From NCBI GenBank assembly GCA_020697515.1, contig JAIXNB010000002.1, positions 1-12,872 of the forward strand: 12,872 bases of DNA, in the 5' to 3' direction. Source of the DNA: Nanobdellota archaeon. Its GTDB lineage: Archaea > Nanobdellota > Nanobdellia > Nanobdellales > Nanobdellaceae. The position numbers and the translations under genes are program-made. Under the pieces are notes generated by a model. The model had not been told where the DNA came from. It was given only the letters and a program-made list of their open reading frames with translations, and did no database searches. Numbering within the stretch: the stretch's first letter is position 1; the number at the start of each line of letters is the position of its first letter. This document shows, in pieces, positions 64 through 10,648 of this stretch.

Positions 64-90
64 TATGCCTTATTACAACTGAAAGCCATG

Positions 91-117
91 CCTTTTAGGG
101 CGGGGAGGAGGTCAGAT
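91..117. repeat. GC-rich 27-mer ccttttagggcggggaggaggtcagat, an inverted copy of 7898-7922.
   Basis: The reverse complement of 7898-7922 is cctttaggacggggaggagtcagat. Aligned to 91-117 it gives 24 identical positions, 1 substitution and 2 single-nt indels. A shared 10-mer cggggaggag in a ~30% GC window is very unlikely by chance. Weaker similarity continues about 12 nt further (tcctctcaa vs tcatcttaa). Confidence 0.75.
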
Positions 118-5985: not shown

Positions 5986-7575
5986 ATGATGGGTTTTCCA
6001 ATAGACTTGAATTTGCTGCGAAAGAATCCCAGATTATTTAAGGAGAGTATTAAAAAGAGAGGAGGGGATCCAAGTGTAATTGACAAGGCATTGGAATTAG
6101 ATAAAAGAAGACTACAATTACAAAGAGAACTAGATAGATTAAGACATAAGAAAAACATATATGCAAGGCTTTTTGGGTTTACAAAACAATATTTGTCCGG
6201 AAAACTAGATGAACAAGTAGTTTTATCTAAACTCAGAGAAGTTGGGATAGAAATCGAAAAAGTAGATGAGAGTATACTAAATAAAATTAAAAAGGAAGTT
6301 ACTAAAATAGACGAAGATATCAAAAAGACTGAAATGGTCTATAAAGATACTTTAAATAATCTAATTAAGTTATTATGGAACCTTCCAAACCTTGTTGCGG
6401 AAGATGTACCTGTTGGAAGTGAAGAAAAAAATATGCCTATAAGATTTTGGGGAATTCCAAAAGTTTATAAGCGGTATATTGAAGCTTTTAGGGAACAGGC
6501 TGAAAGATGGGGTTGGATAATTGTAGAACTAAAGAAATTCCTAGAGGATAAAAGATTCGAAAAGTATGTCAAAAATAGAGAAAAATTGGAAGAACTATAT
6601 AGAATATTAGAGGGAAAAGAGAGCTTTAAAGAGATTAATTTTAATGAAGTTCTCGATTTTAGATTATTAAATAGAGACAGGATAATCCCCTATACACTAG
6701 TAAATTTTGAACCAAAACATCATTATGATTTAATAAAAGATTTTGCTATTGCGGACACTGATAAAGCCGGTATAGTAGCAGGATCTAGGTTTTATTTTGA
6801 GTTCAAGGAGCTAGTACTAATGGATTTGGCGTTGTCTATTGAAGGCATAACATTTTTAATTGAAAGAGGATATAAACCCGTAATACCACCCTATATGTTA
6901 AAGAAGAAGGTATTAGATGGAGTAATAACATTAGAAGACTATGAAGATATGATGTACAAAATAGATGGTGAAGATTTATTTTTAATTGGTACTGCAGAAC
7001 ATCCAATAACTGCGTTATATTATAATGAAATATTTAATGAAGGAGATCTACCTTTAAAAATAGTTGGATGGTCTCCATGCTTTAGAAAGGAGGCAGGAGC
7101 ACATGGTAAGGATACTAAAGGAATATTTAGAGTACACCAGTTTCATAAGGTAGAACAATATATATTCTGTAAGCCAGAAGATTCTGAAAAACTACATGAA
7201 GAATTAATAAGAAATGCTGAGGAGTTCTTGCAGAGATTAAATATTCCATATAGGGTAGTTTTAATTGCTAGTAAAGATATGGGTAAAAGAAATTATAAGC
7301 AATATGATATTGAAGGGTGGTTTCCCGGACAAGGTAAATATAGGGAATTAGTTTCAGGCAGTAATGTAACTGATTGGCAGTCTAGAAGATGTAATATTAG
7401 ATATAGAAAAAAAGATAATAAATTAGATTTCGTACATACTTTAAATTGTACTCTTGTAGCAGTACAGAGGACTCTTTGTGCAATAATGGAAAACTTTTAT
7501 GATCAAAAAAGAGATGCGATAACTGTACCAAAGCTTTTAAGAAAATATATACCAAATAACACTATAGTTCGATGA
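5986..7575 (+). CDS. serS: Seryl-tRNA synthetase (common bacterial/archaeal type), unusually long at 529 aa.
   Basis: The N-terminal coiled-coil arm (IDLNLLRKNPRLFKESIKKRG...) is present, as are motif 2 (SPCFRKEAGAHGKDTKGIFRVHQFHKVEQ), TDWQSRR and motif 3 (HTLNCTLVAVQRTLCAIMENF). TATA-like sequence at 5955-5966, about 25-30 nt before the ATG, suggests a leaderless mRNA. Confidence 0.93.
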   Translation: MMGFPIDLNLLRKNPRLFKESIKKRGGDPSVIDKALELDKRRLQLQRELDRLRHKKNIYARLFGFTKQYLSGKLDEQVVLSKLREVGIEIEKVDESILNKIKKEVTKIDEDIKKTEMVYKDTLNNLIKLLWNLPNLVAEDVPVGSEEKNMPIRFWGIPKVYKRYIEAFREQAERWGWIIVELKKFLEDKRFEKYVKNREKLEELYRILEGKESFKEINFNEVLDFRLLNRDRIIPYTLVNFEPKHHYDLIKDFAIADTDKAGIVAGSRFYFEFKELVLMDLALSIEGITFLIERGYKPVIPPYMLKKKVLDGVITLEDYEDMMYKIDGEDLFLIGTAEHPITALYYNEIFNEGDLPLKIVGWSPCFRKEAGAHGKDTKGIFRVHQFHKVEQYIFCKPEDSEKLHEELIRNAEEFLQRLNIPYRVVLIASKDMGKRNYKQYDIEGWFPGQGKYRELVSGSNVTDWQSRRCNIRYRKKDNKLDFVHTLNCTLVAVQRTLCAIMENFYDQKRDAITVPKLLRKYIPNNTIVR

Positions 7576-7614
7576 TTTCTTTTCATCTTATTTTTAATTT
7601 CAAATTAAAATGTT

Positions 7615-7671
7615 ACCCGCTGGGGTGGTCGGTTGTCATTTATTCCAACCGACCGGTTTGGGCGGGCTTTT
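7615..7671 (+). ncRNA. GC-rich extended hairpin (~52 nt) followed by CTTTT. It is either a small structured RNA of unknown class or a 3' hairpin of the serS transcript.
   Basis: ggtcggttg (7627-7635) pairs perfectly with caaccgacc (7646-7654), giving 9 bp. cccgc (7616-7620) pairs perfectly with gcggg (7662-7666). The segment between the two stems can close with G-U pairs. The hairpin has no internal T4 and is followed by T4 at 7668-7671. The A/T block tttttaattt (7591-7600) lies ~20-25 nt upstream. The strand call rests only on the T-run. Confidence 0.4.
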
Positions 7672-7756
7672 AAAATATTTTAACATAACGTATAAGTTTG
7701 TTACGTAAATATTATCGATTGAGAGCCAGAAACATATAACGTGTTCTTTTGCATCA

Positions 7757-7772
7757 TTTAAATATTTTTATA
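7757..7772 (+). promoter_or_regulatory. TATA-like box tttaaatatttttata, positioned ~25 nt upstream of the start of the GC-rich island.
   Basis: tttttata at 7765-7772 lies ~25 nt before GAAGCCCCC at 7793. The same spacing is seen before several ATGs in this window. A/T-rich context makes this weak on its own. Confidence 0.3.
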
Positions 7773-7897
7773 GTGCTTTGCTAGATAGCAATGAAGCCCC
7801 CTCAAACCTTTAACCCTCTGTCCAATATGTGGGAAAAATAAGCTCACCTGTTTATGGAAATGATAAAAGATATGATTTACACCAGGTTAAGATGATT

Positions 7898-7922
7898 ATC
7901 TGACTCCTCCCCGTCCTAAAGG
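7898..7922. repeat. GC-rich 25-mer atctgactcctccccgtcctaaagg, an inverted copy of 91-117. It lies at the 5' edge of the structured RNA core.
   Basis: See the entry for 91-117. This copy includes the first hairpin (cgtcc-taaa-ggacg) of the RNA core. Confidence 0.75.
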
Positions 7923-8089
7923 ACGAGGGTTCCCCATAGGGGAACCACCATCGCACCCGTCTCACGACGGGGTCATCGGCTCGGTTGGTGTCATTGAGCT
8001 GGGTCAGAGCAGCCCTCTGTTATCATTATTGCAAGAAAAGGAAAAGAAATCTACTATCTGCCATGAAGGGTGAGGCTTCACGGTTGTGA

Positions 8090-8095
8090 TTTTTT
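8090..8095 (+). terminator. T6 run, a candidate archaeal oligo-T terminator for the + strand RNA candidate.
   Basis: It is the only run of 4 or more T after ~300 nt that are free of T4. It is preceded by the small hairpin gtga-ggct-tcac (8070-8081). Confidence 0.4.
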
Positions 8096-8320
8096 GGCTC
8101 AGATATTTTAAGACAAGTTAAATATTGAAAAGTCTGAAATCGGAAAAAGACGGGATTTATAATGTATTGAAGTGGCAAATAGACTAAAAATCATCTTTGT
8201 TTCTATTTTCAAAGTTAGGTATTTACTTTTTATAGTTCTTGGTAATTATAACATCTTGAGATAAACTCTATCAAAGCAGTATATAGGCTCTTTTATGCGA
8301 TGATGAGATGATATGATGAT

Positions 8321-9547
8321 CTATGTATCTGTTATCTCGATTCCTTCTGGTCTCCAATAAGGATCTATAGTATTTATACCCTTCACACTTTTTTTAAACC
8401 ACAAAATACCCGTCCAGGAAATCATTGCTCCATTATCATTAGCAAAATCTAAAGGCACTGTTCCAAATTTTATTTTCCTCTCTTCACACATTGATTTTAG
8501 CATACTTTGTAATCTTCTATTAGCAGCGACTCCTCCAGTTAATCCTACCTCTTTCTTATTCAAATGGGCTACTGCTCTCTCTACAATTTCTGTTAACATT
8601 GCAAATATGTGCTCTTGGATGGAGTAGGATAAGTCTTCTAGAGAAATATTTCTATCTCTATCTAACAGATTCTTGATATAAGTATAGATCCCTCCAAGAT
8701 GAATATCCATTCCTTTGACTGTATAGGGGAGCTCTATTAACTTTTTTCCCTTTTCTGCCAGCTTTTCGATTTTCGGACCAGCGGGAAATCCCAAACTTAG
8801 CAACCTTCCTATTTTGTCCAGAAAATTTCCTACTCCTATATCTAAGGTCTCCCCAAATACCCTGTATCTACCTCCTTCATAGGCCAATACCATCGTATTT
8901 GCTCCAGATACCAGTAATATCACAGGATCTTTAAAGTTGTTATATAGTTTAACAATTTCTATATGAGCTATTAGATGATTAACTCCAATTATTTTTATAT
9001 TTAAAGTATTTGATAATTCCTTTGCCAAAAAAGCACCCTGAACTAGTGTTGGATACAATCCGGGTCCCGCTGAGTATGATATTAGGTTTATTTTTCTTTC
9101 AAAGTTATTTAAATCTCTTTTAATTCTATTAAAAATTTTATTTAGCTTTTTTTCAATTTCTTCATCTGTAGATTTTATTTTTTGATCTTCCACCCAAACT
9201 TCTACTCCATCATTCAGAATTAGATATCTATACCTATTCCATGGTTCCTCGTGAAATCTCTCAAAAACTGTAAATTTATTTTCTAAATATTTCTTTAATT
9301 CATATAAAACATCAACAAAACAAAGTTTATCACCAACTTTTATTTTTACAAATCCAGCATTATTTAACGCTTTTTTTAAGACGTTAATAGCTTCTTTAGA
9401 ATGTAATTCAGCGGCTTCTCTAGGATGCACTCCTCCTTTCTCAGTTTTGAAAATAACTCTAGTGTTTGAATATATTTTACCTCTTTCGTCAACAATTCCT
9501 ATAGAAAACGTATGTGCTGTACATTCTATACCTAGTGAGATTATCAT
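8321..9547 (-). CDS. kae1: Kae1 (tRNA N6-threonylcarbamoyladenosine transferase, KEOPS catalytic subunit) carrying an ~85-aa internal insertion.
   Basis: Family motifs are present: MIISLGIECTAHTFSIGIV, GGVHPREAAELH, SAGPGL, GVNHLIAHIE (the HxxxH metal site), YRVFGETLDIGVGNFLDK, LPYTVKGMD, TGGVAANRRL and NDNGAMI. It is 408 aa against the usual ~325-340 aa. Confidence 0.9.
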   Translation of the reverse strand: MIISLGIECTAHTFSIGIVDERGKIYSNTRVIFKTEKGGVHPREAAELHSKEAINVLKKALNNAGFVKIKVGDKLCFVDVLYELKKYLENKFTVFERFHEEPWNRYRYLILNDGVEVWVEDQKIKSTDEEIEKKLNKIFNRIKRDLNNFERKINLISYSAGPGLYPTLVQGAFLAKELSNTLNIKIIGVNHLIAHIEIVKLYNNFKDPVILLVSGANTMVLAYEGGRYRVFGETLDIGVGNFLDKIGRLLSLGFPAGPKIEKLAEKGKKLIELPYTVKGMDIHLGGIYTYIKNLLDRDRNISLEDLSYSIQEHIFAMLTEIVERAVAHLNKKEVGLTGGVAANRRLQSMLKSMCEERKIKFGTVPLDFANDNGAMISWTGILWFKKSVKGINTIDPYWRPEGIEITDT

Positions 9548-9746: not shown

Positions 9747-10175
9747 ATGGAAGAATACATCTTTGCTGATGGTGTTTTCGTGGGAAAAGATATTTTAACA
9801 ATATATGAAGGGCTATACTTATTAGAAAGTCGAAAAATAAAGGTTTATGATAAATATGGAAAAGAACTAGATATAACTGATATATTAACAGAGGACCTCA
9901 AAAAAAGATATATAGTCTATAAATTTTTGAAAGAAAGAAATATAATATTTGGGGCGGGTATGAAATTCGGTGGAACTTTTAGAGTTTATGAGAATCCAGG
10001 AGATGACCACTCTAAGTGGATATGTTTCCCAGTATATAAAAACGAAAAGTTTACAATATATGAATTCTTAGCAAAAAATAGAGTCGCACATAGCACCAGG
10101 AAAACATTACTAATATCTATAGTAGATAAAGACAAAATAAGAAAATTTTTAGAAATAAAATGGAAAAAGTTGTAG
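9747..10175 (+). CDS. endA: tRNA-splicing endonuclease, catalytic (alpha) subunit.
   Basis: GGTFRVYENPGDDHSKW...NRVAHSTRKTLLISIV matches the EndA catalytic core, with the Tyr in RVY, the His in HSK and the Lys in RK. It is small (142 aa). Confidence 0.88.
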   Translation: MEEYIFADGVFVGKDILTIYEGLYLLESRKIKVYDKYGKELDITDILTEDLKKRYIVYKFLKERNIIFGAGMKFGGTFRVYENPGDDHSKWICFPVYKNEKFTIYEFLAKNRVAHSTRKTLLISIVDKDKIRKFLEIKWKKL

Positions 10176-10648
10176 TATATAAAGAAAATAATTATTTCTG
10201 GACTAGTAAGAATAATTATAATATCTTGTACAAGTTAGGGAAAGTTGTAGGGAGAAGGGTTATATACTCACCAGAGGAAGTCCTATATCTCATAGAGAAA
10301 GAGAAAATAATTGTTAAAGATGGAGATAAAGTAATTGATAGCAAAATGGAGTTCTTATATACATATAAGAATAATATAAACATAAAGAAATTCCTTGTAC
10401 TTAGGAGACTGAGAGATGTCGGATATTATGTTGATATAGTTCCTGAAGGAGTCTTAGTTCATATGAAAGGAGAAAGATGGAACCCGATTTATTTGGCAGT
10501 TCCATACCATGAATACGAGATTATAGATTGGGAAAACATACTTAAACATTTAGAGAGTGCAAAAAGATATAAATCTAAACTTTTGCTGGCACTGATAGAT
10601 ATAGAGTTAGATATTGTGTTTTATGAAGTCTTAGAGCTTAGGTTTTAA
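10160..10648 (+). CDS. tRNA-splicing endonuclease, structural (beta) subunit paralog.
   Basis: It has the EndA-like core LVLRRLRDVGYYV...AKRYKSKLLLALIDIELDIVFYEV. It lacks the RVY Tyr and HS His of the catalytic triad. Its first 16 nt overlap the end of the alpha gene, which suggests translational coupling. Confidence 0.72.
   Translation: MEKVVVYKENNYFWTSKNNYNILYKLGKVVGRRVIYSPEEVLYLIEKEKIIVKDGDKVIDSKMEFLYTYKNNINIKKFLVLRRLRDVGYYVDIVPEGVLVHMKGERWNPIYLAVPYHEYEIIDWENILKHLESAKRYKSKLLLALIDIELDIVFYEVLELRF

Follow-up and report, generated by a model that had tools for sequence, protein, structure and literature searches.

Identity of the GC-Rich Island

The window (the whole stretch of nanoarchaeal DNA analysed here, 12,872 nucleotides) contains a gap of 745 nt between serS (5986-7575, plus strand) and kae1/tsaD (8321-9547, minus strand). 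Within this gap lies a GC-rich island, and the question raised by the locus is what the island encodes, and on which strand. A first-pass annotation had proposed a new class of structural RNA of about 300 nt, read from the plus strand at 7793-8095. The island itself is real, with a G+C content of 57-58% at 7887-8026 vs. 32% in the whole window. No ORF of 60 aa or more separates serS from kae1/tsaD, in line with the earlier description, but the stricter statement that none exceeds 28 codons does not hold, as short ORFs of 50, 37, 34, 34, 33, 32 and 30 codons are present.

The sole above-threshold match in Rfam 15 (cmscan) is to HgcC (RF00062), at 8017-7887 on the minus strand, covering model positions 1-130 (83.6 bits, E 3.5e-18; the gathering score, the Rfam cut-off, is 50 bits). 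The match extends to 7887 and hence takes in 13 nt of flank. A permissive Rfam scan of 7500-8400 yields, beyond HgcC, only noise and a weak match to sot0042 (7908-7943), a tnpB sense-overlapping transcript, and the plus strand is without any family match in this interval. Matches to tRNA, SRP RNA, RNase P RNA and 5S rRNA are also absent there at E up to 10, as the annotation had judged by eye, and ARAGORN finds no tRNA in the window. The GC island is an RNA of a known family, HgcC, encoded on the minus strand. Thus the proposed database search confirms an RNA gene and removes both the plus strand and the novelty, the latter because a confident Rfam match was the very outcome that the annotation had named as doing so. 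The general premise, that GC islands point to structured RNA genes in the AT-rich genomes of thermophiles, was right here. HgcC was found in Methanococcus jannaschii and Pyrococcus through a high-GC screen (PMC4247193, PMC5732400), and its function is listed as unknown (PMC5732400).

The strand is assigned as minus because the covariance model matches that strand only and because of the G-U pair counts: 29 of the 30 consensus pairs of the window copy are standard on the minus strand vs. 25 of 30 on the plus strand, which pairs worse because G-U pairs turn into A-C mismatches. The minimum-free-energy fold of the window copy contains the same hairpins as the HgcC consensus. Folding also recovers the four local hairpins noted at first (plus-strand stems of 5, 8, 6 or more, and longer), and folding either strand gives a series of hairpins that match those stems. 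Folding energy was rejected as a strand test, since both strands fold well (z -2.9 for minus vs. -3.3 for plus).

That the locus instead encodes a plus-strand RNA with its own TATA box and T6 terminator is very improbable. Such an RNA could appeal to the good folding of the plus-strand hairpins, to a TATA-like TTTAAATATTTTTATAG at 7758-7774 and to the T6 at 8090-8095, but it has no Rfam match to set against the full-length HgcC on the minus strand, it carries the A-C mismatches, and 7793-7899 is unconserved flank in all homologues. Its T6 is the A6 flank that precedes the TCAC boundary of the element described below. The pattern of T-runs is as first stated, the plus strand being without T4 from 7770 to 8089, with T6 at 8090-8095 and four A-runs, but it is not unusual: TTTT-free stretches of such length are common in the window, where six reach at least 324 nt. 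Moreover, the HgcC core lacks T4 and A4 on either strand. The case made from a plus-strand promoter and terminator is unsupported. The helix thought to join the ends of the unit (7793-7798/8074-8079) does consist of complementary 6-mers, GAAGCC and GGCTTC, about 275 nt apart, but it has no counterpart in any homologue and pairs a left-end remnant with unrelated flank about 100 nt past the right end of the element. In place of the 300-nt unit there is a scaffold of about 118 nt in an element of about 190 nt (Table 1).

Table 1. Features of the HgcC-containing element and of a second right-end module, in window coordinates.
Feature	Position	Strand	Basis or remark
HgcC scaffold, RF00062	7900-8017	-	Rfam match, covariation, 29/30 pairs
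H1	8015-8010/8001-7996	-	HgcC hairpin
H2	outer 7981-7977/7950-7946, inner 7970-7966/7961-7957	-	HgcC hairpin
H3	7945-7940/7934-7929	-	HgcC hairpin
H4, the right-end (RE) hairpin, CCUCGUCC-UUUA-GGACGGGG	7909-7928	-	Locus comparison, covariation
Right-end linker, AGGAG-TCAG	7900-7908	-	One G short of the consensus AGGAGGTCAG
Right boundary of the element	after TCAG, 7900	-	Conservation ends there in about 150 loci
Flank (AUAAUCAUCUUAACCUGGUG...), putative 3' "guide" tail of HgcC read-through RNA	7869-7899	-	Predicted from the omega-RNA model
First T4 past the element, possible archaeal termination signal	7865-7868	-	A4 on the plus strand; conjectural
Homologue of the promoter spacer found in intact elements	8018-8049	-	Alignment with relatives
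Decayed left end (LE)	8050-8085	-	Alignment with L047, L136, L155 and L148, and with intact LEs in isolate genomes
TCAC, left boundary, conserved target or transposon-adjacent motif of the family	8086-8089	-	TCAC lies 5' of the LE in every intact copy
Second, minimal right-end module, TTAC-AACTGAAAG-CCATGCCT-TTTA-GGGCGGGG-AGGAGGTCAG, then unrelated sequence	70-115	+	Sequence comparison

Covariation of the Fold

Copies from Archaeoglobaceae and from vent and hot-spring metagenomes share 80-90% identity with the scaffold. Where the scaffold departs from the consensus, the changes are compensatory or give rise to G-U pairs, and none of the substitutions disrupts pairing; in the RE hairpin, for example, the window copy has a compensatory U-A pair in place of the C-G of the family consensus. 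Covariation was taken from paralogous copies of the element because related kae1 loci have no orthologous gap. An alignment of 18 distinct window-like HgcC copies (A2), scored against a structure of the Rfam type, has 93.1% of its cells paired on the HgcC strand and 84.4% on the opposite strand. Two-sided changes affect 11 of the 30 pairs, including four of the five in the inner hairpin. The covariation score is reached by none of 500 shuffles, and pairing falls to 38-56% in controls with slid partners. The four-hairpin fold therefore covaries among element copies.

Relation of the HgcC 3' End to Transposon Right Ends

Homologous loci were gathered by the 3' motif TTTAGGNCGNGGAGGAG(N)TCAG (118 genome loci) and by a hairpin pattern specific to HgcC (28 metagenome loci). 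In about 150 loci conservation stops directly past TCAG, ...GGAGGAGGTCAG being identical and followed by unrelated sequence. Over its last 40 nt the window copy matches the 3' end of a gene annotated as "RNA-guided endonuclease TnpB" on the Sulfolobus solfataricus plasmid pMGB1, where it is part of an IS200/IS605 element with tnpA and tnpB. This was the one archaeal plasmid matched in the plasmid collection, over the terminal 40 nt only; matches to Providencia plasmids, short and unannotated, were treated as chance. Because conservation stops at TCAG and because of the match to the pMGB1 tnpB gene, the HgcC 3' hairpin together with AGGAGGTCAG is a transposon right end. A tetraloop motif like that of an IS1341-type right end has been described in HgcC (PMC4615843).

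A MAFFT alignment of 104 terminal-motif loci (A1) proved too heterogeneous and was set aside; four classes of right end emerged from it. The first is the window-like full HgcC, the sole class that Rfam calls HgcC, the second comprises canonical tnpB-linked ends, the third is hairpin-rich, and the fourth is a minimal form of about 45 nt. Two loci have rearranged right ends: in L158 (1794-1854) two right-end modules form a perfect palindrome, and in L133 (around 1540-1659) two lie in tandem, 19 nt apart.

Organization of Intact Elements and of the Window Copy

Intact copies share a fixed order on the top strand: TCAC, a 19-nt linker, the LE hairpin, a TATA box, HgcC (about 118 nt), the RE hairpin and the 10-nt AGGAGGTCAG. 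The LE hairpin is either CCTCGCC-TTTCAA-GGCGGGG or a near copy of the RE hairpin, and a good archaeal TATA box lies 20-30 nt 5' of (A)GAGGG, the first bases of HgcC. Solo copies, which consist of TCAC, LE hairpin, TATA, HgcC and RE and contain no gene, are common and measure about 230 nt. All intact copies have TCAC ahead of the LE, and the sequence before TCAC differs among them; multiple copies with different flanks are seen in other genomes and in metagenomes. This variation of the flanks before TCAC and after TCAG identifies the unit as mobile.

The intact linkers (19 nt at the LE, 10 nt at the RE) reproduce the asymmetry of IS608, in which cleavage occurs 19 nt from the left hairpin, on its 5' side, and 10 nt from the right hairpin, on its 3' side (PMC3597680). 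Owing to this agreement, the HgcC strand is assigned to the active (top) strand of the transposon, and TCAC would be its target site and probably a TAM-type motif.

The window copy is solo, with no gene between its ends. Its linkers measure 10 nt on the left (AACCGTGAAG) and 9 nt on the right, vs. 19 and 10 nt in intact relatives, and it is considered a decayed derivative for this reason. The LE hairpin, CCTCACCC-TTCAT-GGCAGATAG, is broken by the loss of about three of its seven pairs, through decay of the 3' half (GGGCGGGGAGG to GGCAGATAG). The TATA position reads TTTCTTTT instead of the TTTTTATT or TTTATAAA of relatives. Neither tnpB nor tnpA is found in the 12.9-kb window by tblastn for TnpB and Pfam searches of unannotated ORFs. 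A tnpB pseudogene in the gap was considered and rejected, as five TnpB proteins from related loci matched nothing in the window (tblastn). Taken together, 7900-8089 (minus strand) is probably a decayed, gene-less miniature element of the IS200/IS605 family, similar to a PATE, of which the right two-thirds is the HgcC-family RNA. With its LE hairpin and linker lost to decay, a mutated TATA position and neither tnpA nor tnpB nearby, it is most likely an immobilised relic that has kept its structured RNA module intact.

Two other readings of this relic have to be weighed. In one of them the hairpins serve, or served, just as single-strand DNA signals for a transposase, in the manner of REP sequences, and the window copy makes no functional RNA. 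A terminal hairpin with a linker is a classic right-end feature of IS200/IS605 elements, the window also holds the 45-nt minimal module with that hairpin alone, and the TATA is mutated. However, H1-H3 are not transposase sites and yet covary strongly, HgcC RNAs have been detected in other archaea by northern blot and dRNA-seq (PMC4247193), and intact copies conserve a dedicated TATA box. This DNA-only reading is improbable.

In the other, slightly less doubtful but still unlikely, the element has become immobile and its RNA has been kept for a cellular role unrelated to TnpB, for instance a regulatory or protein-binding one. The RNA module is intact although the LE and TATA have decayed, with 29 of 30 scaffold pairs kept and no pair-breaking substitution, which could reflect selection for such a host function. 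Moreover, six contigs of different metagenomic origin agree in the gap to 99.5-100%, two of the five expressed HgcC RNAs of Thermococcus kodakarensis have no link to a transposase (PMC4247193), and Halobacterium salinarum grew better when a related sotRNA and a PATE-derived RNA were overexpressed (PMC4615843). Nevertheless, the six contigs represent one species, so that their identity is uninformative; the compensatory pairs are common to other subfamilies (L133, L141) and may have been inherited and not selected here; the element is missing from the same locus in relatives, and its promoter position is mutated. An immobilised relic remains the preferred interpretation of the window copy.

Association with TnpB

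Four metagenome loci have an ORF of 365-392 aa within the same ends, located between the LE and HgcC on the opposite strand. The ORF encodes TnpB, as judged from Pfam matches to Cas12f1-like_TNB (84-98 bits) and OrfB_IS605. The TnpB proteins of full-length copies (358-392 aa) form a sharply bounded clade in database searches, the named members of which belong to Archaeoglobus, Methanocaldococcus, Pyrococcus, Thermococcus and Methanococci. These are the taxa with known HgcC, and no clade member was found under a nanoarchaeal name. In 10 of the 10 clade loci examined (L133, L141, L143, L146, L160, L161, L162, L163, L164 and L166, where L160 is Archaeoglobus profundus, L161 Methanocaldococcus bathoardescens and L162 Pyrococcus kukulkanii), HgcC and tnpB are encoded head-to-head on opposite strands, with HgcC 50-125 nt upstream of tnpB. 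The A. profundus TnpB is located at CP001857.1 1539645-1540784. In these ten loci both genes sit inside IS608-like ends (TCAC ... TCAG), and with increasing divergence of TnpB the HgcC score declines from 123 to 33 bits. In L141 a CRISPR array (63-379, with Rfam CRISPR-DR42 repeats) is also present, no more than about 650 nt from the full-length HgcC/tnpB element and past its right end.

The pairing suggests, with roughly even chances, that HgcC is the guide (omega) RNA of a distinct archaeal clade of TnpB, its gene lying outside the tnpB 3' end, separately promoted and directed head-to-head toward the right end. The gene-less HgcC mini-elements would then be guide-RNA-only transposons that spread among hyperthermophiles and reached the reduced genome of a nanoarchaeal symbiont, in which the RNA module has survived longer than the transposon ends. 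No paper equating HgcC with an omega-RNA was found in the literature.

Several observations count against this proposal. The head-to-head layout differs from that of canonical omega-RNAs, which overlap the tnpB 3' end; a census of TnpB places omega-RNAs downstream of tnpB and does not mention a head-to-head layout. The window lacks tnpB and tnpA, and the clade lacks a TnpB under a nanoarchaeal name. In T. kodakarensis three of the five expressed HgcC RNAs are reported to be sense and to start within transposase genes, which is a caveat against the head-to-head reading, and the other two have no transposase link (PMC4247193). The P. furiosus HgcC is reported in that paper to be antisense to a transposase gene.

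If the association nonetheless reflects function, the head-to-head pairing offers a concrete candidate role for HgcC and suggests a non-canonical arrangement of transposon guide RNAs. The clade would also suggest a group of thermostable pairs of TnpB and guide for which TCAC is the predicted motif.

Proposed Mechanism

The anatomy of the element, with a scaffold at the right end, a guide in the flank and a TAM by the left end, fits the logic of TnpB omega-RNAs, and a cycle can be proposed by analogy. In active elements, a Y1 transposase acting in trans would mobilise the single-stranded element through both hairpins. Transcription from the HgcC promoter would proceed through the right end into the flank, giving a scaffold followed by a flank-derived 3' guide. 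TnpB, using this transcript as omega-RNA, would cut the empty donor site (TCAC plus flank), and the cut would lead to recombination that restores the element. A corresponding transcript of the window copy, if produced in the source nanoarchaeote, would carry the flank at 7869-7899 as its putative guide. This flank sequence is unique in the window, where no second target for it was found.

Comparison with Known Systems

The window copy agrees with the HgcC family in its full-length, above-threshold match to the model, its four-hairpin fold and its location as a GC island in an AT-rich thermophile. It differs in its nanoarchaeal host, in the loss of 1 nt from the 3' GGAGGAGGUCAG motif, and in being a decayed element without tnpB.

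TnpB omega-RNAs (also reRNA or sotRNA; RF02656/RF02657, IS200/IS605 OMEGA) resemble HgcC in that the scaffold ends at the right end and conservation stops at the cleavage site. Further shared features are a flank-derived 3' tail (putative in HgcC), the pairing with a TnpB clade and a TAM-like TCAC by the left end. By contrast, canonical omega-RNAs overlap the tnpB 3' end in sense, whereas the relatives of the window copy are head-to-head with tnpB and have a TATA box of their own; the window copy, in addition, has no tnpB.

PATEs and other gene-less IS200/IS605 derivatives, such as H. salinarum VNG_R0052 and the PATEs of Geobacillus stearothermophilus, contain no protein gene and have fused left and right ends. 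PATEs that encode omega-RNAs for use in trans have been described (bioRxiv 10.1101/2023.03.14.532601). Solo HgcC elements are similar, being present in many copies with different flanks and carrying an omega-RNA-like RNA that would need TnpB in trans. The window copy likewise has no gene between its ends and retains an intact RE hairpin and a homologous LE. However, the broken LE hairpin and the linker of 10 instead of 19 nt mark it as dead and not as an active PATE.

The Second Module and the History of the Locus

Two right-end modules are present in the window, the second being the minimal module at 70-115, which scores 19 bits with the Rfam HgcC model. It belongs to the class of about 45 nt, represented by at least 24 of 117 right-end modules in other archaeal genomes, in which conservation starts at TTAC. 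This module may be REP-like, or a mini-element in which left and right ends are fused. Like REP/RAYT-associated hairpins, it consists of one short-armed hairpin of the IS200/IS605 type that recurs in many genomes; unlike them, it belongs to an archaeal sequence family, and a RAYT-type gene was not observed. Two decayed modules in 12.9 kb hint at past transposon traffic into reduced nanoarchaeal symbiont genomes.

Homologues of the window Kae1 with 63-73% identity occur in Nanobdella, Nanopusillus and other nanoarchaeotes, which places the host among the thermophilic Nanoarchaeota. In four related lineages the next gene begins 0-30 nt past kae1, and these four kae1 loci lack both the gap and the HgcC motif and show no similarity to the gap by blastn. 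The conservation among relatives that the first-pass annotation had looked to is missing at this position. Because the related kae1 loci lack HgcC and any similarity to the gap, the HgcC element is a lineage-specific acquisition and not a conserved housekeeping RNA gene. An 85-aa gene downstream of kae1, initially considered as shared, was rejected, the proteins being unrelated. The locus is due for annotation as HgcC with an IS200/IS605 remnant, instead of a new RNA class.

The adjacency of serS and kae1, together with the 745-nt gap, is seen in this lineage only (5986-8320 compared with L125-L130), and in related nanoarchaeotes other genes are packed straight after kae1. The HgcC relic thus lies at a synteny breakpoint.

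A second GC-rich structure is found in the gap at 7615-7666 (plus strand), about 40 nt past the serS stop. It consists of a perfect 10-bp stem (GGUCGGUUGU.../...CAACCGACC) within an outer CCCGCU/GGCGGG stem, has a folding energy of -28.9 kcal/mol and is followed by TTTT. Rfam gives no match to this structure, and none of the fetched loci contains a homologue of it. It may represent a terminator-like hairpin or a further remnant of an element.

The product of kae1/tsaD measures 408 aa, and its nanoarchaeal homologues 392-416 aa. Typical archaeal Kae1 proteins (320-330 aa) align to 62-69% of the window protein, which suggests a lineage-specific insertion of about 80 aa. At 9747-10648 (plus strand), two neighbouring genes that overlap encode proteins of 142 and 162 aa, each with a match to tRNA-intron endonuclease domains, an arrangement consistent with a two-subunit splicing endonuclease.
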